64,000 bases of DNA from Anaerolineaceae bacterium (GCA_040371255.1 BAABOD010000001.1:60545-124544); one strand, 5' to 3'. Positions 2,230-52,761 are shown, counted from the first letter of the stretch. Notes: generated by a model from the letters alone, not told the origin. Numbers and translations are program-made.

Positions 2230-2355
2230 GAGTACCTCCTTTAGGAATATAAATGGCTTCAATAAAAGTTTACAGGGTTTATGTAGGGATGTCAAACGGA
2301 AGTTAGCCCAGCAATGCCCAATAGTGATTATTATGAAATTTGGTAAAGTCTTTAT

Positions 2356-2646
2356 TTATCGTTTGCTTTTATTTTCCATCAATAATTTTAGATAATCATC
2401 TTTTGAGATGTGGCAATCTAAAATGCCTTTGAAAACATTAGGTTTGACTTGCAATTGTCTTGAGATAATGCTAAGGAGTGAATCTTCGATATCTTTTTTA
2501 TGATTGGTAGGTAACATGGTGGTAATGGGGTTTAGTCCCTCAATCTCGAGCACATACCAAGAGTGCGGGTTATTGGGGCGACTTTTTAATGACATGCCTA
2601 ATTTCTTTATTAAAATTTTTTCAACATCTGAAGGTTTATAACCCAC
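2356..2646 (-). CDS. HicA-like toxin candidate (mRNA interferase fold), extended C-terminus
   Basis: KPSDVEKILIKKLGMSLKS..NPHSWYVLEIEG..ITTMLPTNHKKDIEDSLLSIISRQL resembles the HicA/YcfA pattern (helix, His-containing strand, 'vP.H.kdl..g.l..Ilkq'). AT-rich. Last gene of a 3-gene operon. Confidence 0.4.
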   Translation of the reverse strand: MGYKPSDVEKILIKKLGMSLKSRPNNPHSWYVLEIEGLNPITTMLPTNHKKDIEDSLLSIISRQLQVKPNVFKGILDCHISKDDYLKLLMENKSKR

Positions 2647-2661
2647 TCTTATTGCCTTCGC

Positions 2662-3048
2662 TTAGCGAGGTTTAATATATTGCTCTACTAAATTAAGCGC
2701 ATCTTTTTCGCTGATTCCATTATTTGAAACTTCAAGAATTATCGAATAGTATTCAATAAGAGATTGTTTATAATCCTCAAGAGCGTCTTTTATCGTTTCC
2801 CCCGTTCCATACACATTAAAAATAGGATCATCCAAAATTACCAAGCCGCTATTATCATGTTCAATTCTTAAATTTAAAGGTTTTGCAAGTCTTAGTTTTT
2901 CATCTAGTGGGCCATAAAGATATAAACCGGGATTTAGACCATGTTTAATATCAGTCACTTCTCCCTTAGTAGGACGAAAAAACGGTTTGGATGTAATCGC
3001 AGCCTTCTGAGTATCGAGATCGTAATAAGGTGTAGCAACAGTGATCAT
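2662..3048 (-). CDS. HicB-like antitoxin-fold protein
   Basis: PIFNVYGTGETIKDALEDYKQSLIEYY matches the HicB/DUF1902 signature 'pg..tqGeTleEAl.n.keAl..'. It ends 15 bp upstream of the HicA-like ORF. Confidence 0.4.
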   Translation of the reverse strand: MITVATPYYDLDTQKAAITSKPFFRPTKGEVTDIKHGLNPGLYLYGPLDEKLRLAKPLNLRIEHDNSGLVILDDPIFNVYGTGETIKDALEDYKQSLIEYYSIILEVSNNGISEKDALNLVEQYIKPR

Positions 3049-3050
3049 AG

Positions 3051-3359
3051 TTATTTCACGCTTTGATTAATTTCATCTTCAGAATCCAACATTTTATGAA
3101 GTAGATCATAAAATGCTTTGATTTGTTCATTCGACATATAAACTTGCGCCACACATTTCGCTTCAATTTTCTCGATTTTTGACAAATTTAAGTTGATCTC
3201 TTCCACATTTCCAATAATTAATGGGGGCTGTATCTCGAAGAAAGAAATCAAATAGTTAGATTCGGTCTTTTGAACCACAACATTACTTGCGTAGCGGGCA
3301 ATCACGCCTTCTGGAATAACCCATTCGATTTGAATTTCCTTATGAGTTTCGTTATCCAT
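3051..3359 (-). CDS. DUF3467-like protein
   Basis: IPEGVIARYASNVVVQKTESNYLISFFEIQPP....AKCVAQVYMSNEQIKAFYDLLHKML fits the DUF3467 pattern (YaN...v.ht..EF.ldF....P...akvv.ri.ms...ak.l...L). Separated by 2 bp from the next ORF. Confidence 0.45.
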   Translation of the reverse strand: MDNETHKEIQIEWVIPEGVIARYASNVVVQKTESNYLISFFEIQPPLIIGNVEEINLNLSKIEKIEAKCVAQVYMSNEQIKAFYDLLHKMLDSEDEINQSVK

Positions 3360-3500
3360 CCTTGCCTCTCAATTTCAGCCAAAATAAAAATATCTGATCT
3401 ATCAGTTGTTCTAACCGTTAATTCTGATTTTTGATTATGAGTGTATTATAAACCCAATCATAAAATTTTAATTTGCTAAACTTCTACATTTATTTTCTCT

Positions 3501-3540
3501 GTTCTCGCCGGTCTCCTGAGTGCGAAGCCTACCCATAGCA
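3501..3540 (-). repeat. interspersed repeat module (GTTCTCGCCGGTCTCC + 25-nt L module)
   Basis: GTTCTCGCCGGTCTCCTGAGTGCGAAGCCTACCCATAGCA. It is near-identical to the reverse complement of 9652..9692 and to 14487..14526. Confidence 0.8.
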
Positions 3541-3630
3541 TACCATAAAAGAACAAGCTCGCATGTAAAGTACCATTAAAAAACAGCTCGTAGATCGAAT
3601 TCTAAACCTTGATGTTCGCTGAACTTAAAT

Positions 3631-5283
3631 ATGATCAAAAATGAGTATAATATTAATATGAACACCCTCTACTACGGTGATAACCTCGATATCCTGCGGC
3701 GCTACATCAAGGACGAAAGCGTGGATCTGATATACCTCGATCCGCCCTTCAATTCCAACGCCACCTATAACGTGCTCTTCGCGCAAAAAGACGGCAGCCA
3801 ATCCAGCGCGCAAATCCAAGCCTTCGAAGACACTTGGCAGTGGGACGAAAATGCCGTGCGTACTTACGAAGAAGAAGTGGAAAAAGGCGGACCGGTAGCG
3901 GATGCTCTGCGCGCTTTTCACCTCATCCTGGGCGGCAGCAACATGATGGCATACCTGACTATGATGGCACCGCGCCTGATGGAGCTGCGGCGTGTGCTCA
4001 AACCCACCGGCAGCCTGTACTTGCACTGCGACCCAACCGCCAGCCATTACCTCAAAGTGCTGCTGGATATGGTCTTTGGCGCTGAAAACTTTAGGAATGA
4101 GATAGTTTGGAAGAGGACAACAGCAAGAAGCGATTCTCGTAAATGGAACCGTGTCCATGACACAATTCTTTTTTATTCAAGGTCTAAAAATTATACTTGG
4201 AACACTCAGTTCATTTCATATGACTCTGATTACTTAAGAAAATTTTATCGTTTTGAAGAAAAAGAAACCGGAAGAAAATATACATTAAGTGACTTAATGG
4301 CAGCAGGCACTAGAAATGGTTCATCTGGTTTACCATGGCGAGGTGTTGATCCAAGAACTCGAGGGAACCATTGGAAATATACTATTGAAAAGCTTGATGA
4401 ATTAGAAAAAATGGGAAGGATTGTTTGGCCTAAAAAGCAAGGAGGCGTTCCTCGTTATAAGAGATATTTAGATGAGATGCCCGGTGTTGCTATACAATCT
4501 ATTATCGCAGATATACCGCCCATTTCTGCACAATCAGCTGAAAAACTTGGTTATCCCACCCAAAAGCCCTTAGCCTTGCTCGAACGCATCATTCAAGCTT
4601 CCAGCAACCCCGGCGATGTGGTGCTGGATCCGTTCTGCGGCTGCGGCACAGCCGTGGTGGCGGCTCAGAAGCTCGGCAGGCAATGGATCGGCATCGATAT
4701 CACTCACTTAGCCATCGGCTTGGTCAAGCACCGCTTAGAAGATGCCTTTGGCGATTCCTTGCAATTCCAGGTGATTGGCGAACCTACAACGTTAGAAGAA
4801 GCCGCGTCCCTCGCAGCCCAGGATAAATACCAATTCCAGTGGTGGGCGTTAGGCTTGGTCGGCGCGCGGCCGGCGGAGGGCAAAAAAGGCGCTGACCGCG
4901 GCATCGACGGACGGCTGTACTTCCACGATGACGCCAGCGGGAAGACCAAGCAAGTCATCCTTTCGGTCAAGGGCGGGCATGTGAACGTCCCGCAGGTGCG
5001 TGACCTAATTGGTGTGGTGGAGCGCGAGAATGCACAGATGGGCGTATTCATCACGCTCGAGGAGCCTACCAAACCCATGCGTGCGGAAGCAGCCCAAGCC
5101 GGCTTTTACCACTCCGAGGTCTGGAACCGGGACTATCCGCGCATCCAGATCTTGACCATCGCGGAGCTGCTCGAGGGCAAGGGGATCGACATGCCGCCCA
5201 TGCGCCAAGTCAGTCAAACCTTCAAGCGCGCCAAGAAGGAGAATCCCAAGGATGGAGAGCAGATGGGGCTGATTGAGGGGTGA
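3631..5283 (+). CDS. site-specific DNA methyltransferase (N6A/N4C, beta-class motif order) fused to a C-terminal Mrr-type restriction-endonuclease-like domain
   Basis: Motif IV DLIYLDPPFNS near the N-terminus. NEIVWKR, HDTILFYS and YPTQKP motifs. Motif I VLDPFCGCGTAVVAAQKLGRQWIGIDI. C-terminal GADRGIDG...VILSVKGG...VRDLIGV resembles the Mrr_cat core. Confidence 0.8.
   Translation: MIKNEYNINMNTLYYGDNLDILRRYIKDESVDLIYLDPPFNSNATYNVLFAQKDGSQSSAQIQAFEDTWQWDENAVRTYEEEVEKGGPVADALRAFHLILGGSNMMAYLTMMAPRLMELRRVLKPTGSLYLHCDPTASHYLKVLLDMVFGAENFRNEIVWKRTTARSDSRKWNRVHDTILFYSRSKNYTWNTQFISYDSDYLRKFYRFEEKETGRKYTLSDLMAAGTRNGSSGLPWRGVDPRTRGNHWKYTIEKLDELEKMGRIVWPKKQGGVPRYKRYLDEMPGVAIQSIIADIPPISAQSAEKLGYPTQKPLALLERIIQASSNPGDVVLDPFCGCGTAVVAAQKLGRQWIGIDITHLAIGLVKHRLEDAFGDSLQFQVIGEPTTLEEAASLAAQDKYQFQWWALGLVGARPAEGKKGADRGIDGRLYFHDDASGKTKQVILSVKGGHVNVPQVRDLIGVVERENAQMGVFITLEEPTKPMRAEAAQAGFYHSEVWNRDYPRIQILTIAELLEGKGIDMPPMRQVSQTFKRAKKENPKDGEQMGLIEG
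5211..5283 (+). repeat. direct repeat copy A (authentic 3' end of the methylase gene)
   Basis: 64 of 73 positions identical to 6301..6373 by manual alignment. The terminal 22-mer is GATGGGGCTGATTGAGGGGTGA. Confidence 0.9.
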
Positions 5284-6300
5284 GAAATTCAGTCTCCAGT
5301 CATTCCAAGATGTTCCAAGCTTGGTCATCTGAGAGGTTTCCAGTACCAATATTTCTCTATGATGGAATTGACCAGATCACAATCCATTGAATAACTTAAA
5401 TATAATTCCTTAGGTAAATAAATATGGCCTTCAATCCTTATAAGAATTCCTTTGATATTTTCAATCCGGATTTAATCATGTATCTTGGTTTGGTCGCCGC
5501 CCAAAAGAGGAATGAAGATGCAACCAAATATATATCTCGAATCATGCCCTTTGGACAGAAAGAGTTCTTTATCCGGTCATGCGATAACGATTTGCTCTAC
5601 CAAGAAAATTGCCAGGAACTATTAAGCGAAGTTCTTTTCAAATTTGATTCCTATAGTCTAACAGTTGAACAATTGCATGCCATACGCAATGCGAAAAACT
5701 ATAAAATACCTCCGGAATCGTTGTCCATGCTCGAGGGGGAAAATTACGATGAATTTTTGCACCGCGCACTCCTAGATAATGCGCTTATGGAAGCGCAGTC
5801 CTTCATGGAAATGTACCTGAGATATGTTGCTTTTTTCTCTGCAAGGGAAAAATTTCGTTACTCAAACACTCATAAAATGTTAGAAAAAATTAAAGCTTCA
5901 AAAAGTCAAATAGCAAAAGAAGCCTATGAATACCTAACTTCTAATGTTTATAGTAAATGTCAGAAAACGGATCCTAAACTTTGGGGCGATTATTTAACAG
6001 AATTGCGTAATACTACTACACACGAAAAACAACTCGAACTCTCGAATCATGAAGTGATTTACCCACTCGGTAGAAGCCGAACTGAGATTACCTACCAAAA
6101 CCAGCCAATTGCACGCTTTATGCAAGATATCGAAAACAACATCGTATTTATGCTGCATTCGATGTTTCAAATTCTTTATGGCTTGACGTGGGATGATGCC
6201 AGAGAAAAAATTAAACAAAATTAATCACTTAGTATTTATTTGTTAATACCCAGTAAAATCTCTTTACTGCTGGCTCCCGAAAGTCTACTGATTGACAAAT
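5284..6300 (+). mobile_element. AT-rich insertion cassette 1 (HEPN-like gene) bounded by copies A and B of the methylase 3' end
   Basis: Compositional drop relative to the flanks. Bounded by the 73-bp direct repeats. No recombinase gene inside. Confidence 0.35.
5424..6224 (+). CDS. HEPN-like (RNxxxH motif) orphan protein, Abi-type RNase candidate
   Basis: 266-aa all-helical-looking AT-rich ORF. Motif YLTELRNTTTHEK fits the HEPN R-x4-H (RNxxxH) signature. No other family recognised. Confidence 0.35.
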   Translation: MAFNPYKNSFDIFNPDLIMYLGLVAAQKRNEDATKYISRIMPFGQKEFFIRSCDNDLLYQENCQELLSEVLFKFDSYSLTVEQLHAIRNAKNYKIPPESLSMLEGENYDEFLHRALLDNALMEAQSFMEMYLRYVAFFSAREKFRYSNTHKMLEKIKASKSQIAKEAYEYLTSNVYSKCQKTDPKLWGDYLTELRNTTTHEKQLELSNHEVIYPLGRSRTEITYQNQPIARFMQDIENNIVFMLHSMFQILYGLTWDDAREKIKQN

Positions 6301-6373
6301 CAATCAGATCTTCAAGCGCGCCAAGAAGGAAAATCCCAAGGCTGGAGAGCAGATAGGGTTGATTGAGAGGTAA
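6301..6373 (+). repeat. direct repeat copy B (displaced pseudo-3' end of the methylase gene, still ending in a stop codon)
   Basis: Would encode ..FKRAKKENPKAGEQIGLIER* versus the authentic ..FKRAKKENPKDGEQMGLIEG*. Confidence 0.9.
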
Positions 6374-6393
6374 AAAACTTAAATTTAACCTGT

Positions 6394-6508
6394 GTTCTTG
6401 CACGGTACCCGATGGGCAGGCTGCGCACTCTCCAGACCAGGCAAGGCATTTGACCATTAGGTCTCAAATATGGAGACCTTCGGTCAACTTCCTCGCTGGT
6501 GAGGACAC
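6394..6508 (+). repeat. composite three-hairpin repeat element (HP1 with L insertion, HP2, HP3)
   Basis: GTTCTTGCACGG[TACCCGATGGGCAGGCTGCGCACTC]TCCAGACCAGGCAAG; TTGACCATTAGGTCTC..GGAGACCTTCGGTCAA; CTCGCTGGTG-AGGA-CACCAGCGAG. Same architecture as 9249..9373, 9444..9604 and 30624..30742. Confidence 0.85.
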
Positions 6509-6524
6509 CAGCGAGAGCAGGGCA

Positions 6525-6546
6525 GTTAGGGCTGATAGCGGGGTGA
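6525..6546 (+). repeat. 22-bp core copy C (GTTAGGGCTGATAGCGGGGTGA)
   Basis: Matches the methylase terminal 22-mer and copy D at 9170..9191. It directly follows the composite repeat. Confidence 0.75.
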
Positions 6547-9169
6547 GGTATTCCCCCTAACTTGCAGGGCTAACGCTTTGTTTTTGGTATCGTTGCTTTT
6601 TTACGCCTTTTCTCTTTTTTTAGCATCAGTCAAAATTATTGAATGTTGAAGTAATAAACCCAGCTAGCAGTAAAATCGCCGCTTTGATCTACAATAACCG
6701 GATTATCAGAAGGTTCCCAATGATCATTGAACCAAACAGTTATTCCCTGGGTGTAATTTCCCGTTCGAGAATAATCGAAATTAACCTGCATAATTATTTG
6801 GCTGCCTTCCAGAGAAAGATTACCGGAGCCGTTCATAATGTAAGAATAATCATATTCCCAAACTGCATAATGTTTTTCCATATTTGGATCATCAGAAAAA
6901 GCTTCTTTTGCCACACCATTTGCACTGATAAAGGCTCCAATCTCTACATTTCCAGTTTTCGAGCGGTTATCCCAAGTCCCTTCCATGGTAAAGTCAGTGG
7001 TCTCGATATTCCAAAGGAGTGTACCTTCCTGCCTCGTTGTCGCTACATACGGGACGCTCACAGAGAAATGACCATCTTCCTCAATGGGAATAACGCCAAG
7101 CTCTTCTAAAGCAGCAAAGATACCAGCACTTTCCGGAGAATTCAGAGTCCCTTTGGCAAAAACCATACCCGTGGCTTTCTGCTCTCCGATATCGACTTGG
7201 ACGGTTGGAGGGGTTACGATAAACTCGATGGTTTTCAAAACATTGTCAGGTTCATCCGGAGAAACAATTTCAATCTTGTTGGGAGAACCTGCCATCAGAT
7301 GGCCTAAGATTCTAAAAGGCAGGCTGGCTTTGCCCTCGTTATCAATGACTTGCTGCCATTTTTCTTTGTCTTTGACTTCCTCTGCCAACGGGGCAATCCG
7401 AGCGATATAACCGGCATAAGAGGATTTCAATGGTTTTGGTTCGGCTTGATCATAAGCACTGTCGAATACCTGTATCGTTACGAGTGTGTTGAGCTGCTTG
7501 GCAAGTTCATCCAACACCTTTCTAAGTTCAGTTTGCTGTTCAGCAGCTAACTTACGGCTGATTTGGCCAAATACCGGCTGAAGTAAGCCTTGTAGCAGCT
7601 CTATTTTATGATTTCTACTAAGTTCATCCATGATAGCCTGATTCAATCCGCCACCGCCGGTGAATCCATATTTCATTGCCTCATCTTGATAATAAGCTAC
7701 GACAGTTTCATCTTCCCAAAATTGCTTGGTATAACGGTCAATTTCAGCCATGACCTTCTGGTTCAGCTCATCTGGCGATTTAGCCGCCTTAGCCATGGGC
7801 ATTAATATGAGGTACCAATCTTTAGCGGTTCGTTTGGCTTCTCGTTCATAGTAAAGACGATAAGCTTGATCATAGATATCCTTCCTACCGCTGAGAGCCT
7901 CATTGGCAAACTGCGTTATAGAATAATCGATACAAAACACGCCAACAGAAGCGAGGTTCATCATTGAGGTTCCAAATTTGGAAACACTAAAGTTGGTGAG
8001 GTTTTTAATCAAGTTGACATAGAGTGCTGTATTGTTCCCGCTTTGATAGTCCACAGCAGCCTGGGCAATCGCTGAGAGCAAACCCAAGTTGGTCATTAGA
8101 TTGCTGATATTCTCAATAAAATCTGACGCATAAACAACAGAGCTCATATTAAGCCCAGCGCCTGTAATGTTTAGCCAATCGGTGACAATAGCGTTGCCAA
8201 GAACCAGAGCTGAGGGTCCTGGGGTCATATTCTGTTCAATTGCTTCGCGAATAATATCTTCATATTGGGATGATAACGTTGCGGCTCTCATTGCTATACT
8301 AGGGATGGTATATTGGACATAAGCTGCCCGGGTGTATTCTTTCCCTACCACAAAAGCACCAAAAATAGAAAGATGGTCAGTTGTGATAATCACATTACTA
8401 TGGACTTCATCGATGCGAAAATCAACGCTTTCCCATTCCTGAGTACTTTCATTAAAATAAGCCGCGCCTACCTGCCGAGAGACATCCACGTTAGGATCGA
8501 GCTGAGATTTATCATAGGGTAAGGTGATCCACATAACACCAGCTAATTCCTCATCCGTATCGATATCAAAATCATAGCCAGTAATTGAAATTTCTTCCAA
8601 GGGCGGCAAATCATTCCTGGGAGTAATGGTCACTTCGGCTGGATTATTGAGACAAACTGGAGATATTTCTATCCCGACACCATTGTCGGAAACTTCAAAG
8701 ATATTATTGCTCAGAGTTCCAACGATGGCATTTTCATCTGGAACGCTTGCTTCCGTTTTCTGTGTTGTGGTTGGCTGAGGTTCACTTCTATTGCAGGAGG
8801 GAAGAGTTATAACCAAGAATGCAAAGATTAGGAGCAAGCTAAGCGTTTTTTTGGCATTAGTCACAAACAATTGGGGTTTCATTTTTCATCTCTCCTCTCA
8901 GGGTGATTTATTTATAAAGGCTATGGATTCACTGATTAACTCCATACCTACGGATTAATCATTTAACAACACTTACTAACCAACGTTGACGTTGATTTTT
9001 TCATAACTTATCAGTGACATTTCGAGTAAACATTGGTTGCTAAAACAATGAACCTACGAACGGGCTTACAAATGAATTATACATTACTTGTTAGGTTTAA
9101 AAGGCACATTTTTTTGTAATACATTGAAGGCTCCCACCCTCTTTTGGAGATCAGGTCAGGCGGAAAGCC
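6547..9169 (-). mobile_element. AT-rich insertion cassette 2 (748-aa lipoprotein gene) bounded by core copies C and D
   Basis: Lower GC than the flanks. Bounded by the 22-bp core copies in direct orientation. No recombinase gene. Confidence 0.3.
6636..8882 (-). CDS. large secreted/lipoprotein of unknown function
   Basis: 748-aa ORF with RBS GGAGAG. N-terminus MKPQLFVTNAKKTLSLLLIFAFLVITLPSC (signal peptide, lipobox-like LPSC). No domain recognised. Confidence 0.7.
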   Translation of the reverse strand: MKPQLFVTNAKKTLSLLLIFAFLVITLPSCNRSEPQPTTTQKTEASVPDENAIVGTLSNNIFEVSDNGVGIEISPVCLNNPAEVTITPRNDLPPLEEISITGYDFDIDTDEELAGVMWITLPYDKSQLDPNVDVSRQVGAAYFNESTQEWESVDFRIDEVHSNVIITTDHLSIFGAFVVGKEYTRAAYVQYTIPSIAMRAATLSSQYEDIIREAIEQNMTPGPSALVLGNAIVTDWLNITGAGLNMSSVVYASDFIENISNLMTNLGLLSAIAQAAVDYQSGNNTALYVNLIKNLTNFSVSKFGTSMMNLASVGVFCIDYSITQFANEALSGRKDIYDQAYRLYYEREAKRTAKDWYLILMPMAKAAKSPDELNQKVMAEIDRYTKQFWEDETVVAYYQDEAMKYGFTGGGGLNQAIMDELSRNHKIELLQGLLQPVFGQISRKLAAEQQTELRKVLDELAKQLNTLVTIQVFDSAYDQAEPKPLKSSYAGYIARIAPLAEEVKDKEKWQQVIDNEGKASLPFRILGHLMAGSPNKIEIVSPDEPDNVLKTIEFIVTPPTVQVDIGEQKATGMVFAKGTLNSPESAGIFAALEELGVIPIEEDGHFSVSVPYVATTRQEGTLLWNIETTDFTMEGTWDNRSKTGNVEIGAFISANGVAKEAFSDDPNMEKHYAVWEYDYSYIMNGSGNLSLEGSQIIMQVNFDYSRTGNYTQGITVWFNDHWEPSDNPVIVDQSGDFTASWVYYFNIQ

Positions 9170-9191
9170 GTTAGGGCTGATTGAGGGGTGA
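9170..9191 (+). repeat. 22-bp core copy D (GTTAGGGCTGATTGAGGGGTGA)
   Basis: Its last 19 nt match the corresponding part of the methylase terminal sequence (5265..5283) at 18 of 19 positions. Confidence 0.8.
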
Positions 9192-9248
9192 ATCGAACAA
9201 CACGAGTAATACCTTTGCAAAGTATTTTCGTGGCTTTCCTTGCCTCCC

Positions 9249-9692
9249 GTTCTTTCACGATACCCTTCGGGCAGGCTATGCACGCTCCTGACCATGAAAG
9301 GCATTTGACCTTTAGGTCTACAATAAGGAGACCTTCGGTCAACTTCCTCGCTCGGTCAGAGACCGGCGAGAGCAGGCAGTGCTCGCTCGGTACCCTACAA
9401 GTAGGCTGCGCACTCTCCTACCATGAAAGGCATGGGTCCCTTTGTTCTTTCATGGTCTCCTGACCATGAAAGGCATATGACCGTTAGGTCTCAGGTTTCC
9501 TACTCCCATAAGATATCGATAAGTGCAATAAAAAATGGAGACCTGCGGTCAAAATCCTCGCTGGTCCTTACAGGAGGCTCTGCACTGAGGACACCAGCGA
9601 GAACAACCAAAGATGGAGACCGGCGAGAGCAGGGCAGTTTGCTCGCTCGGAACCCTACGAGTAGGCTTCGCACTCAGGAGACCGGCGAGAAC
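9249..9692 (+). repeat. dense array of modular palindromic repeats upstream of uvrB (two complete composite elements plus extra HP3/L modules)
   Basis: Composite elements at 9249..9373 and 9444..9604. Additional CTCGCTCGG[L]..GGAGACCGGCGAGAAC units at 9381..9432 and 9615..9692. Confidence 0.85.
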
Positions 9693-9753
9693 GAGAGCAT
9701 CATAACCTCTGCAAACTGTCTTTGCCATCTTCCCTTGCCTTATAATTATCCCC

Positions 9754-11796
9754 ATGGAATTTGAACTACACGCACCTTATCAACCCACGGGTGACCAGCC
9801 GGAAGCTATCCGCCAGCTCGTCGAGGGCATCAAGAAGGGTTACCGCAATCAAGTGCTGCTGGGCGCCACGGGCACGGGCAAGACTTTCACCGTCGCCAAT
9901 GTCATCCAGGAGCTGCAGATCCCCACCCTGGTGATGACTCACAACAAAACCTTAGCCGCTCAGCTCTACGCCGAGTTCCGCGAGTTTTTCCCCAATAACG
10001 CCGTCGAATACTTCGTCTCTTACTACGACTACTACCAGCCGGAAGCCTACATCCCGCGCCGTGACCTCTACATCGAGAAGGAAACGGACATCAACGAGGA
10101 GATTGAGCGCTTGCGCCTCTCCGCCACCACGAGCTTAATGTCCCGCCAGGATGTCATTATCGTGGCGTCGGTCTCTGCCATCTACGGCTTGGGCGATCCA
10201 GAAGCTTACGGCAAGAGCGTGTTGACCCTCGAGACCGGTAAGATTTACCGCCGCAATGCCCTGCTCCGCCAGCTGGTGGATATCCAATATCAACGCAACG
10301 ATTTCGAGCTCAAGCCCGGCGTCTTCCGCCTGCGCGGGGATACACTCGAGATCCTGCCGGCTTATCGCGACCGCGATATTTACCGCGTCAGCTATTTCGG
10401 CGACGAGGTCGAGCAAATCACCCGCTTGGACCGCATGACTGGTGAAGTCGTTGAAAAGCTGGATAGACTGGATATTTACCCCGCCAAGCACTACATCACG
10501 GAAGAAACACGCAAAGAAACGGTGCTGCAAGGCATCGAGGCTGAGCTGGAGGAACGCTTGGCTTATTTCCGCAAGGAAGGGCGCATCCTCGAGGCGCAGC
10601 GGCTGGAGCAGCGCACACGGTATGACCTGGAAATGCTGCGTGAGGTGGGTTACTGCGCCGGCATCGAAAACTATTCGCGCCACATCGACCAGCGCCCGCC
10701 GGGCTCACCCCCTTGGACGCTGCTGGATTTCATGCCCTCGCGCTACTTGATGGTGCTGGATGAATCGCACATGATGATCCCACAGCTGCGCGGTATGTAC
10801 AATGGCGACCGTTCCCGCAAGGAAGTTCTGGTCGAGTACGGTTTTCGGCTGCCTTCAGCGCTGGATAACCGCCCGCTTAAGTTTCCGGAGTTCGAGAAGA
10901 TGATGGGTATCACGCTCTATACCAGCGCCACCCCAGGTCCTTATGAGATGGGCAAAGCAGACCAGGTGGTCGAGCAGATCATCCGCCCAACAGGCTTAGT
11001 TGACCCGAAGATTACCGTGCGCCCAACCAAAGGGCAAATTGATGATCTCGTGGCAGAGCTACGCAAGCGTATCGCCAATGGCGAGCGCGCACTGGTTACC
11101 ACGCTGACCAAACGCATGGCGGAGGACCTTTCCACCTATCTGACCGAGCTAGGCTTCAAGGTGCACTATTTGCACTCCGAGGTCGAGACGCTGGAGCGCG
11201 TCAGCATCTTGCGGGATTTGCGCATGGGCGTTTACGACGTGGTGGTGGGCATCAACCTGCTGCGCGAGGGGTTAGACTTGCCAGAAGTTTCCCTGGTAGC
11301 AATTATGGATGCTGATAAGGAGGGCTTTTTGCGTTCAGCCACTTCGCTCATCCAAACATTCGGGCGCGCTGCCCGCCATGTGCATGGTGAGGTGATCCTC
11401 TATGCGGATAAGATGACTGACGCGATGCAGACAGCGATCAACGAGACCAACCGCCGGCGTGCCAAGCAGGAAGCCTATAACGAAGCCCATCACATCTCAC
11501 CGGTGAGCATTACCAAAGCCATCAAGGACCTGACAGACCAGTTAGCTTCCGCTGCTGGTGTGGAACGCCCTGCCAGCCGCAATGCGCAGGAGCTGGCAGC
11601 AAAAATGGAAGTGAAAGAGATGGAGCGCATGATTGCCGAGATGGAAAAGCAAATGCGTGCCGCTGCTTCGCAGCTCGAGTTCGAACGCGCCGCGATGCTG
11701 CGCGACCAAATTTACGAACTGCGCGCTATATTAGCCGAGAGTTCTAACTTGCCAGAATGGAAAAAACAAGAGATCTTAGTGGGTAGGGTTGATTAG
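9754..11796 (+). CDS. uvrB: excinuclease ABC subunit B
   Basis: 680 aa. [17 protein letters not shown], Walker [13 protein letters not shown] box, C-terminal UVR domain ([17 protein letters not shown]). Confidence 0.97.
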
Positions 11797-14394: not shown

Positions 14395-14486
14395 AATTAA
14401 AACTCCTTAGTATCAGAAATTATACCTAGAATAAAAAAATAAATTCAGATGCTTCAAGCGCTGTATAAGTCAGCCTATTTCATCTT

Positions 14487-14526
14487 GTTCTCGCCGGTCG
14501 CCGAGTGCGCAGCCTACCCGTAGGGT
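14487..14526 (-). repeat. interspersed repeat module (GTTCTCGCCGGTCGCC + L module)
   Basis: GTTCTCGCCGGTCGCCGAGTGCGCAGCCTACCCGTAGGGT in the rseP/dinG divergent intergenic region. Confidence 0.8.
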
Positions 14527-14658
14527 CCCATGCTAGAAAACGGATTCTTATCTTAATTTAGGACATTTCAAATTTGCTACTTTAGGATAGTATCACTTTG
14601 CTCTTACATCTTTTTTAATTTTACTCTTCGCCACCTCGCCTGATGTATAATTTTCCCC

Positions 14659-27321: not shown

Positions 27322-27500
27322 ATTGATTGGAAAGTTTGATATGACGAGTATTTCAGCCTATGACCGATCACTATTTCAACCCAGAATACTCTTGACAGTC
27401 AACATAGTTACTGCGAGGAGAGCGCTCTTTGCCCGACGAAGCAATCTTATCTACCGTGGCAAAAGATTGCTTCGCCCCGCTGGGCTCGCAATGACAATAG

Positions 27501-27573
27501 CTCGCTGGTCCTTACAGGAGGTTCCGCACTGAGGACACCAACGAGAACTGAGATTGTGGAGACCGGCGAGAAC
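27501..27573 (+). repeat. HP3 repeat unit with loop insertion plus a terminal GGAGACCGGCGAGAAC unit
   Basis: CTCGCTGGT[CCTTACAGGAGGTTCCGCACTG]AGGACACCAACGAGAAC ... GGAGACCGGCGAGAAC. Near-identical to 9557..9604. Confidence 0.8.
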
Positions 27574-27684
27574 AAAAAGGGATCCATTTTGTCCAGCCTA
27601 ACCATGTTTTGGCGTGCTGTTTGGTTTTATAATAATAAGTTGCACTAGTTAAATAGAACAAATATACCATTTTAGAAGGATTTT

Positions 27685-30591: not shown

Positions 30592-30623
30592 AGCGCGTGA
30601 AAGCCGTTTGAACAGACCCCATT

Positions 30624-30742
30624 GTTCTTGTTCTTGCATGGTCTCCTGACCATGCAAGGCTTTTGACCTTCAGGTCTCAAAATGTTTGAAATGCGGAGAC
30701 CTACGGTCAAACCCACTCGCACGGTCGGAGACCGGCGAGAAC
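30624..30742 (+). repeat. composite three-hairpin repeat element immediately downstream of uvrA
   Basis: GTTCTTGTTCTTGCATGG-TCTCCTGA-CCATGCAAG; TTGACCTTCAGGTCTC..GGAGACCTACGGTCAA; ..GGAGACCGGCGAGAAC. Confidence 0.85.
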
Positions 30743-30752
30743 AAGGAATAAC

Positions 30753-31787
30753 TTATTTTGAGCTACGCAGCTTACCAATCTTTTCTAATTTACCTGTTTC
30801 AGGGTTCAGATAATGCCAAAAATCCCAGCCATTTACAGATTTCCAAGCTGTTGTAATGGTCTTAGCAGCTTCTGAAGGGGTTTTGTATATTTTACCGTTT
30901 AACTCGATGGAGCCTATAAGCGATAATAGCCTTGCATGATAATTAGTGCCCCTATACCTTGCTTGAATATATAATGGAAACTTAATCCCATCTTTAACTA
31001 CAGGTATTTGGGGTTGCTTAATGCTTTGGTCCTTTGATGTATCCTGTTCAAGAACATTGATATTTAAGACCTCTTTCCAATAATCTGCATCTATAACAGG
31101 AATTGTGTATTCTTCATCCTTTACGCCTACGTGATATTGAATCAATAAATCTACAAGTTGTTCTCCATTAATCAATTGAATAGGGGTTTTTCCAGGTGCA
31201 TTCGCTTCATCTCTTGCAGTAGGTGTAAAGTCACTCGGGGTGATAATAATTCCTTGCTCCGCAGCACCAATCAATAAAGAGCCTCGTAAGTTTCTTACGA
31301 TCCCAGAACCTACGTTGTTTTTCCATCGTTTTGCTTGTACAGCTACCTTCACAACACTGAGTGGGTTAGATCGTAAAATACCTCGGACATCCACTCCTTT
31401 ATCATTGGTTAGGCTCGTTTGCTCAGTTTCTTCAAAACCCATAGCCTCTAATAACCGTAATATCAGTTCCTCAAATTTTTGTGCACTCAATTTAAGTAAT
31501 AAGATTTTTAAGTCTTTGCGAAAAGTTGTATTGATTTTTTCTATCTGCTGTTGGATACCAGGGGCAGACGTTGATTTAAGCGCAAAAGTGCCTGGCTTTG
31601 TGCCCCTTATAAAACGCGAGTCTGGTTTTATTGTGTCTGTATAAAGCAGTGCCCCCATCGAAGCTTCAGGTGTTCGGCCAGCGGTTTCTAATAGATTTTT
31701 TCGCAACGCCCTAGAAGCGATTTCTTTATAGTGCAAAGGTTCACTCGATTCCTTCAAAATGACATAAGCAGCTTCTTTAAATTGCAT
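30753..31787 (-). CDS. mrr: Mrr-type restriction endonuclease with N-terminal HARE-HTH and C-terminal RAMA-like domain
   Basis: N-terminus FKEAAYVILKESSEPLHYKEIASRAL...GTFAL (HARE-HTH). FEELILRLLEAMGF...GVDVRG...VAVQAKRW...VRNLRGSL (Mrr_cat D..QxK). C-terminus YKTPSEAAKTITTAWKSVNGWDFWHY (RAMA signature). AT-rich. Confidence 0.7.
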   Translation of the reverse strand: MQFKEAAYVILKESSEPLHYKEIASRALRKNLLETAGRTPEASMGALLYTDTIKPDSRFIRGTKPGTFALKSTSAPGIQQQIEKINTTFRKDLKILLLKLSAQKFEELILRLLEAMGFEETEQTSLTNDKGVDVRGILRSNPLSVVKVAVQAKRWKNNVGSGIVRNLRGSLLIGAAEQGIIITPSDFTPTARDEANAPGKTPIQLINGEQLVDLLIQYHVGVKDEEYTIPVIDADYWKEVLNINVLEQDTSKDQSIKQPQIPVVKDGIKFPLYIQARYRGTNYHARLLSLIGSIELNGKIYKTPSEAAKTITTAWKSVNGWDFWHYLNPETGKLEKIGKLRSSK

Positions 31788-52578: not shown

Positions 52579-52582
52579 GCTT

Positions 52583-52715
52583 GTTCTCGCCGGTCTACCT
52601 TTTCACGCACGTCTCCGAGTGCGTAGACTGACATTAGAGTATCAAGCGAGTAGTTTTGTCCGTAGGTCTCACAAGCATTGCATAGTCGGGAGTGCGCAGC
52701 CTGCCTGTAAGGTAT
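52583..52715 (-). repeat. interspersed repeat cluster (GTTCTCGCCGGTCT.. plus two L-type modules)
   Basis: GTTCTCGCCGGTCTACC...GAGTGCGTAGACTG...CCGTAGGTCTC...GGGAGTGCGCAGCCTGCCTGTAAGGTA. Confidence 0.7.
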
Positions 52716-52761
52716 CATGCTAAAACAAGGAAGAACAAGTTTGTTTGAGAAAACTGACAAT

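Follow-up and report, generated by a model that had tools for sequence, protein, structure and literature searches.

We analysed a stretch of 64,000 nucleotides (nt) from an Anaerolineaceae bacterium (GCA_040371255.1 BAABOD010000001.1:60545-124544), hereinafter the window, in which the 3' end of a DNA methylase gene recurs downstream of that gene, between AT-rich gene modules. The gap separating this methylase from uvrB is a hypervariable hotspot of small AT-rich defence and toxin-antitoxin modules in a Candidatus Mesolinea-like population of the Anaerolineae. Sequence comparisons show each recurring copy, along with whatever follows it, to be the fossil of an earlier methylase end and its neighbour, with the copies, as named below, having arrived in the order D, C, B, A. 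Comparison of alleles shows that the modules are swapped between strains and assort independently. The reading that we favour, with a rough probability of 0.55, is that they move by homologous recombination anchored in the methylase and in uvrB or elements resembling repetitive extragenic palindromes (REP), along with occasional one-sided illegitimate joins.

Copies of the methylase end and their former neighbours

The anchor gene (3631-5283, + strand) encodes a 550-aa fusion of a beta-class N6/N4 DNA methyltransferase with a C-terminal domain of the Mrr_cat or 'inactive restriction endonuclease' (NA-iREase1) type. It matches the Pfam families N6_N4_Mtase (1.2e-45), NA-iREase1 (5.8e-11) and Mrr_cat (1.2e-8) and the PADLOC profile MTase_II (4e-77). 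Its 3' end (5206-5287) is repeated at 6296-6377 over 82 nt with 87% identity (repeat family D5), a span that takes in the pair of 73-mers at 5211-5283 and 6301-6373 seen in an earlier note on this DNA. Likewise, a 25-mer (repeat family D6) is found at 5259, 6349, 6522 and 9167, always on the + strand, with the final 22-30 nt of the methylase end being present again at 6522-6546 and 9162-9191. When the terminal 22-mer was searched with at most three mismatches, 5262, 6525 and 9170 were the sole matches in the 64 kb and none of 100 shuffles gave any match; the copy at 6352 has more mismatches to this query and was recovered solely within the 82-nt repeat. All the repeats that the note had described, namely a 73-bp pair and four 22-mer copies in direct orientation, were thus recovered in their places.

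These copies, all on the + strand, are termed A to D from the methylase towards uvrB. Copy A (5206-5287) is the present functional gene end, with its TGA stop codon at 5281-5283, and copy B (6296-6377) is the displaced former end, which carries a TAA stop codon at 6371-6373. Of an older methylase end, copy C (6522-6546) preserves the final 22-25 nt, which adjoin the tail of a REP unit. Copy D (9162-9191) is the oldest displaced end, at least 30 nt long and possibly about 47-69 nt before decay. Between A and B lies the newest module (5288-6295, + strand), which holds a gene for a 266-aa protein, ORF266 (open reading frame 5424-6224, + strand). Copy B is followed by a short relic and by one REP unit (6392-6521, + strand), and copies C and D enclose the oldest module (6547-9161, - strand), which encodes a 748-aa lipoprotein (ORF at 6636-8882). 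The right flank is formed by a REP array (9249-9700, + strand), which is the right-hand homology block of the hotspot and differs in unit number between strains, and by uvrB (9754-11796, + strand; Pfam UvrB domains). The methylase 3' half has a GC fraction of 0.59-0.62 and uvrB one of about 0.56, against 0.34-0.41 in the ORF266 segment and 0.36-0.48 in the lipoprotein segment.

The same locus was collected from other genomes. Scanning species-representative genomes with the methylase protein yielded the syntenic locus L001 (Candidatus Mesolinea sp., Anaerolineaceae), whose DNA is 86-97% identical to the window on both flanks; L081 shares this synteny. About 60 further contigs of the locus (numbered in the same series) came from exact look-ups of UvrB and ORF266 and from a degenerate 22-mer scan of metagenomes (JGI, ENA, Logan). 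Twenty-seven of the 60 metagenome matches to the 22-mer pattern were this methylase end or its copies, the others being unrelated coding sequences, and 2.9 million viral contigs held no match. An assembly artefact is ruled out, as the order A-ORF266-B recurs with the same junction in at least 12 independent assemblies from these three sources. A tRNA or tmRNA target site is likewise ruled out, as scans of the window found neither tRNA genes nor Rfam matches.

The loci L129 and L113 lack the ORF266 module, and in both the complete methylase gene ends in copy B, with the TAA stop codon followed by aaaacttaaattaagcct and REP. In L129 this REP is succeeded by copy C, the lipoprotein gene, copy D and uvrB. 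Since copy B is its working gene end and the downstream order is the same, L129 equals the window minus a 1,090-nt unit made up of copy A and the ORF266 module. The 17 nt past copy B recur in L009, L127, L134 and L139 as the opening 17-18 nt of a module with ImmA and DUF4411 genes that follows the methylase stop codon there; positions 6374-6391 of the window (+ strand; aaaacttaaatttaacct) are hence a 17-18 nt relic of the start of that module, copy B's former neighbour. In L118, an Abi_2 gene takes the place of ORF266 between the functional end and the same copy B, so that, as the earlier note had anticipated, alternative modules do occur between the copies. L118 and the window share the right junction, in which a REP 5' hairpin is cut in its loop and followed by an 18-nt filler (TGATTGACAAATMAATCA) and then B; apart from this junction, the filler is absent from the retrieved loci and from the window. 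In the window the right end of the ORF266 module includes a REP 5'-hairpin-like fragment (6268-6277) and the junction filler (6289-6306). Copy B of L118 diverges over its first ~30 nt and thereafter matches the resident allele exactly.

The window and L107, L129, L140, L145 and L081 all have copy C joined to the REP tail ...GCGAGAGCAGGGCAGTT. The REP tail ...GCAGGGCAGTT passes into the methylase sequence ...GAGCAGTT|AGGG across a 5-nt CAGTT microhomology, and the join fits a methylase allele ending in ...GAGCAGTTAGGGCTG; such an allele is functional in L137. Copy D is followed by 57 nt of old intergenic sequence (9192-9248 in the window, + strand), which in L083, L107 and L129 passes directly into the leader of uvrB without an intervening REP array. 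Decayed orthologues of copy D lie beside lipoprotein genes in L093 (7775-7843, ~69 nt) and in L163, where the methylase side has been replaced by an insertion sequence (IS) and copy D alone can be confirmed. As these decayed orthologues adjoin lipoprotein genes at the same place that are 77-81% identical to that of the window, the lipoprotein insertion is old, and its higher GC content agrees. Since each copy still adjoins its former downstream neighbour, the copies are gene ends displaced by successive insertions; the proposal that insertions in tandem restored the gene's 3' end is thereby upheld.

As a separate observation, copy C (GCAGTTAGGG) pairs with a CCCTAAC motif downstream of it (CCCTAACTTGC) in a conserved hairpin located past the 3' end of the lipoprotein gene (6522-6565 in the window). 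Its stem is identical in five alleles, and covariation is hence silent on function.

A hypervariable interval between the methylase and uvrB

When the 42 loci whose methylase end is readable are grouped by the 400 nt that follow the stop codon, ten classes result, and at least eight different AT-rich modules begin 0-20 nt past that codon, their left borders being staggered over this range. Their contents include Abi_2, an AbiJ-like gene, a Panacea antitoxin with a 135-aa toxin, ORF125 with an MqsA/HTH/Panacea protein (the two Panacea modules representing two toxin-antitoxin types), ImmA/IrrE with DUF4411, unknown 246/250-aa proteins and ORF266. Elsewhere the stop codon is followed by IS200, by other transposases or by REP directly. 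The lipoprotein and ImmA/DUF4411 modules are on the opposite strand. All modules with readable ORFs have 33-40% GC, and on the far side they usually extend to a REP unit or to the leader of uvrB. On that side, an identical UvrB protein is found behind three different upstream contents. Insertion sequences also visit the hotspot: an IS200-type Y1 transposase lies 20 nt past the methylase stop in L100 (3316-3765), and other transposases occur beside uvrB or the lipoprotein gene in L086 (414-1187), L082 (1360-2475) and L163 (an rve gene).

Independent assortment is seen in four arrangements: ORF266 with the lipoprotein gene (the window), ORF266 without it (L146, L148), the lipoprotein gene without ORF266 (L129) and a Panacea module with the lipoprotein gene (L140). 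Moreover, in each of the pairs L146/L119, L139/L100, L129/L127 and L113/L105, different modules adjoin methylase 3' segments that agree fully or to 99.7% across 336 nt. Conversely, the ORF266 module, at 97.5% identity or more, stands beside at least three methylase haplotypes differing by 2-4%. Some methylase haplotypes are mosaic, with crossovers spread along the gene; L144 switches ~150 nt before the stop codon, and between L146 and L119 the switch can be placed no closer than the last ~110 nt.

Most of the modules are not flanked by a copy of the gene end. No downstream copy of the gene end is found in the loci with ImmA and DUF4411, the 246/250-aa proteins, the AbiJ-like gene, or ORF125 with Panacea-331, nor in most Panacea-187 loci; downstream copies were detected solely in loci with the ORF266 module, the L118 Abi_2 module or the lipoprotein gene. 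As ORF266 also exists without a relic in L159, and Abi_2 without one in L093, the relic is a property of the recipient locus and not of the cassette. The left borders of the relics lie at -69, -81 and, for C, about -22 relative to the stop codon, and three or four scar-forming events stand against ten downstream classes. Empty sites, for which the earlier note had suggested a search, are exact for ORF266 in L129 and L113, but not for the lipoprotein module: L146 and L148, which lack it, retain no hybrid 22-mer, so that exact excision between C and D is ruled out. Loss of the lipoprotein gene is instead explained by REP-REP recombination.

The methylase itself is subject to a comparable exchange. 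Its AT-rich middle (4115-4546, + strand; GC 0.37) is hypervariable and probably constitutes the target-recognition module. Residues ~150-300 are only 6-56% identical between alleles with flanks that are 96-100% identical, and the segment is AT-rich in every allele, with seven length variants of 307-484 nt. This suggests that methylation specificity may frequently be switched via the methylase middle, and no repeat accompanies the swapping of this segment between its conserved flanks. Conserved GC-rich blocks, that is gene halves and REPs, would act as recombination handles, between which AT-rich modules are swapped: the methylase specificity region and the cassettes upstream and downstream of the gene.

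Beside 79 homologous methylases in other phyla, no gene-end relics rise above the shuffled background. No conserved functional partner is found downstream of this methylase family; since its neighbours in other phyla are unrelated housekeeping genes, the enzyme has no obligate partner in these modules. L149 (1-330) has lost the methylase save for its last ~150 nt and retains the ORF266 module and copy B. ORF266 is therefore independent of the methylase.

Core defence hotspots occupy a fixed position between core genes, hold differing anti-phage or toxin-antitoxin systems in each strain and turn over by recombination in their flanks. Unlike these, the present locus has single-gene resolution, its left border is pinned to one stop codon and its scars record the order of arrival. 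It is a nucleotide-level record of the turnover of single defence and toxin-antitoxin genes without mobile-element machinery in uncultured Chloroflexota (Anaerolineae), in which fossil gene ends date the order of arrival. The methylase stop codon furthermore offers a practical marker for harvesting novel defence genes from metagenomes.

Routes by which modules could enter the locus

Under the reading that we favour, the common mode would be scarless homologous exchange anchored in the conserved, GC-rich methylase 3' half, the REP elements and uvrB. Occasionally, a new piece comprising a methylase 3' part and a new module would recombine homologously on the methylase side alone, its far side joining illegitimately inside the resident methylase tail, at a REP hairpin or at a microhomology of a few bases. 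This process, homology-facilitated illegitimate recombination, alias sequential displacement or 'insertion with long target duplication', would shift the last 20-80 nt of the resident gene downstream along with their followers. Three such fossils would be present in the window: D followed by the old uvrB leader, C by the lipoprotein module, and B by 17 nt left over from the ImmA/DUF4411 module and then a REP unit; copy A, the working end, would have arrived with ORF266. A dedicated recombinase would be unnecessary. REP elements matter here as sites of homology and breakage, and not as the source of the 22-mer.

Several points weigh against this reading. Copy B and the D orthologue of L093, whose alignment score of 56 compares with a shuffled maximum of 32, are independent relics, yet both start at the codons for T-F-K-R, ~69 nt ahead of the stop, and a third fragment, in L093, covers -81 to -50. 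The coincidence at -69 would be unexpected from random joins, with a rough estimate of p ~0.07 when a limit on repeat size is allowed for; the shared border may alternatively be due to chance or to stable direct repeats having a maximum length. Secondly, the homology between A and B, and that between C and D, stops exactly at the stop codon. Thirdly, strain-to-strain recombination leaves unexplained how a brand-new module first arrives after the methylase stop codon. Finally, the host is uncultured, and the material consists mostly of short metagenome contigs, in which donor tracts are hence unmappable.

The same two-mode model has been published for the immunity gene arrays of the Vibrio cholerae type VI secretion system (T6SS) and for Rhs loci (Kirchberger et al. 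2017, PMC5361080), where the authors remark on the likeness to integrons lacking an integrase. As in these and in the 'orphan' modules of Rhs/contact-dependent inhibition (CDI) loci, an upstream anchor gene is conserved, new modules push older ones and former 3' fragments downstream, and exchanges between close strains are mostly scarless, with rare scarred ones. Those arrays displace a variable toxin domain; the fragment here is the conserved tail of the anchor gene, of which an intact version is restored. The modules are likewise different: they comprise defence, toxin-antitoxin or other genes that are unrelated and functionally unconnected with the anchor, and the distal homology and breakpoints are furnished by REP elements.

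A second parallel is provided by insertions with target duplications of 30-400 bp, low GC and no mobility genes, some of which lie over the 3' end of a gene (Nobusato/Furuta/Kobayashi, PMC2853133); allelic substitution and swapping of target-recognition domains were also reported at such loci. By the definition used there, the insert is below 20 kb and carries no mobility gene, and the direct repeats on either side, longer than 30 bp, correspond to just one copy in the genome without the insert. Similarly, the 1,090-nt unit of copy A and the ORF266 module has an 82-nt repeat that is single-copy in L129 and L113, and no mobility gene. The present case differs in its cargo, one orphan protein instead of restriction and modification genes, with the methylase being the target. 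It differs also in that several generations are nested at one site, with repeats that are 76-88% identical as against more than 90% in the published cases. The locus thus extends sequential displacement and long target duplication, known from Vibrio, Rhs and restriction-modification loci, to a further phylum and to an anchor gene of a new kind.

The first alternative to be weighed is site-specific integration, as the earlier note had proposed: the last ~70 nt of the methylase would be an attB site, entered by integrase-less modules that carry an attP-like copy and are served by a tyrosine or serine recombinase encoded elsewhere. We regard this as unlikely, even if much of the layout is compatible with it, including the tandem arrangement of gene, module and displaced gene end, the newest module being nearest to the gene, the exact empty site in L129 and the alternative Abi_2 module between the same copies in L118. 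The common -69 left border of B and the L093 D copy, the end of homology at the stop codon and the hybrid appearance of copy B in L118 also fit. Accretion of this kind is documented for cis-mobilizable elements (CIMEs), integrase-less elements that lie between copies of a gene 3' end, stack in tandem and regenerate the gene end (PMC5704250). Here too, copies of a gene 3' end border modules in tandem and the gene end is regenerated. However, CIMEs are decayed conjugative or mobilizable elements with true attL and attR sites and a known integrase family, whereas here the modules are single-gene units of 1-2.6 kb, mostly without a second copy and with imprecise borders, and an integrase was not found. 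A Pfam scan detected an integrase or transposase domain in none of the 36 window ORFs, in agreement with the note, nor do any of the modules encode a recombinase. The ImmA/DUF4411, 246/250-aa, AbiJ-like and ORF125/Panacea-331 loci have no second copy, ORF266 (L159) and Abi_2 (L093) occur relic-free, and the lipoprotein-less alleles have no 22-mer. The borders are staggered, and the junctions hold filler, microhomology or broken REP hairpins. Furthermore, the 22-mer pattern is absent from viral contigs, and ORF266 is missing from plasmid and phage collections, those of its relatives whose context was examined all being at this locus. Of the note's proposal, then, the displaced ends and the tandem regeneration stand, and the dedicated att-like system is not supported.

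A stronger form of this idea takes the terminal ~70 nt of the methylase as a true recombination site, an attI-like chromosomal platform in a dispensable gene tail, at which small integrase-less defence cassettes, each carrying a replacement tail, would be captured by an unlinked recombinase or a REP-associated enzyme. This appears decidedly doubtful to us; if it were true, a real att site would mean a new cassette-capture system. A fixed 70-nt segment borne by the cassettes, acted on by a recombinase in trans or integrated in the Campbell manner, would explain the -69 border, the limit at the stop codon and the hybrid copy in L118.

The Campbell route needs no recombinase. RecA-type recombination between the 70-80 nt repeats would loop out a circle of the module and one copy, which after transfer would re-enter any methylase end. 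The 82-nt repeat around a 1.0-kb module suits such a cycle, as do the resemblance of L129 to an excised or empty state and the common -69 border that a fixed cassette-borne segment would yield, and the hypothesis has been stated for restriction-modification units with long target duplications (PMC2853133). Yet, repeats of 70-80 nt at 87% identity are a poor substrate for RecA, and release and re-entry have never been demonstrated, according to the same paper. A circle junction was seen in no contig; under the att or Campbell models one would, for example, join the right end of the ORF266 module to ...CCTTCAAGCG...TGA-gaaattcag. The ORF266 relatives with known context all being at one locus also tells against circulation, and the modules without repeats are left unexplained; the cycle is therefore an improbable account.

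It is very improbable that the modules are moved by the REP-like elements themselves, or by a REP-associated or IS200-type Y1 transposase, with the 22-mer being part of a REP variant. Most modules do have a REP unit at their uvrB-side border, both the window and L081 have copy C joined to a REP tail, an IS200 Y1 transposase sits just past the stop codon in L100, and a second REP site (14434-14609) has been replaced by an AT-rich module in L083. Nevertheless, a census of the five other REP loci in the window found the 22-mer at none of them. The 22-mer as a general REP tail, which the note had named as the finding that would undo its case, is thereby rejected. In about 27 contigs it is the conserved coding end of the methylase, and the REP tail GCGAGAGCAGGGCAGTT normally runs on in arrays into another REP unit. 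No Y1 transposase (Y1_Tnp) occurs in the window ORFs scanned, the IS200 of L100 being the sole case, and the breakpoints lie inside the REP hairpins rather than at their feet.

A degenerate integron-like array, an attC cluster without an integron integrase, is rejected as having practically no standing: the AT-rich single-gene modules rich in toxin-antitoxin genes, the newest nearest the fixed site, and the start of C and D with GTTAGGG, near the GTTRRRY core, are outweighed by a motif scan in which RYYYAAC...GTTRRRY pairs 50-150 nt apart numbered one in 5200-9800, off the module borders (shuffle mean 0.98), by modules on both strands, by intI not being found, by the wrong order for attC of GTTAGGG-N23-CCCTAAC at copy C and by inter-module repeats that belong to the genome-wide REP family.

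Module genes, REP-like elements and the wider window

ORF266 is an orphan, with six protein clusters known in all; the three whose context was examined (P0003, P0004 and P0006) each lie between this methylase and uvrB, and plasmid and phage collections contain no relatives. No family match was obtained in Pfam, PADLOC or NCBIfam, and all four full-length relatives share an Rx4H motif, RNT(T/P/S)(T/V)H. Its AlphaFold2 model (pLDDT 60) is mostly helical, and its best PDB matches have E >0.3, with HEPN entries at ranks 15 and 44. With so poor a model and fold matches without significance, the label 'HEPN-like' is unproven for ORF266. The lipoprotein has likewise no match in these three family collections and no PDB relative, and belongs to an unnamed family with members 45-58% identical in Dehalococcoidia and Clostridia.

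The REP-like repeat is a composite, multi-hairpin family resembling REPs or miniature inverted-repeat transposable elements (MITEs). Its copies in the window lie at 3499-3556 (-), 6392-6521, 9249-9700, 14440-14560 (-), ~27480-27580, 30620-30745 and ~52580-52760 (-), the members outside the hotspot having been recorded at 3500, 14489, 27558, 30646 and 52585. The unit at 6392-6521 is 83% identical to 9249-9376 and has a folding z-score of -3.9. The family ends in GTTCT...AGAAC, has no Rfam match and often bounds variable modules. The REP-bearing spacer at 14434-14609, between genes for an M50 peptidase and a DinG-like helicase, is replaced in L083 (6721-8549) by a 1.8-kb module of 32% GC that includes a PIN-domain gene; this is a second small hotspot, without flanking repeats.

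The region upstream of the methylase is also variable. In the window it is occupied by an AT-rich module (2279-3628, - strand) with the REP element at 3499-3556 and three small ORFs, one of which gives a weak DUF3467 match. This module is absent from L001 and L113, and its place is taken in other strains by REPs or by a tRNA-like sequence (L135, ~1430-1520). Farther downstream, a gene for an Mrr-type restriction endonuclease (HARE-HTH, Mrr_cat and RAMA domains; 30753-31787, - strand) adjoins the REP unit at ~30620-30745.

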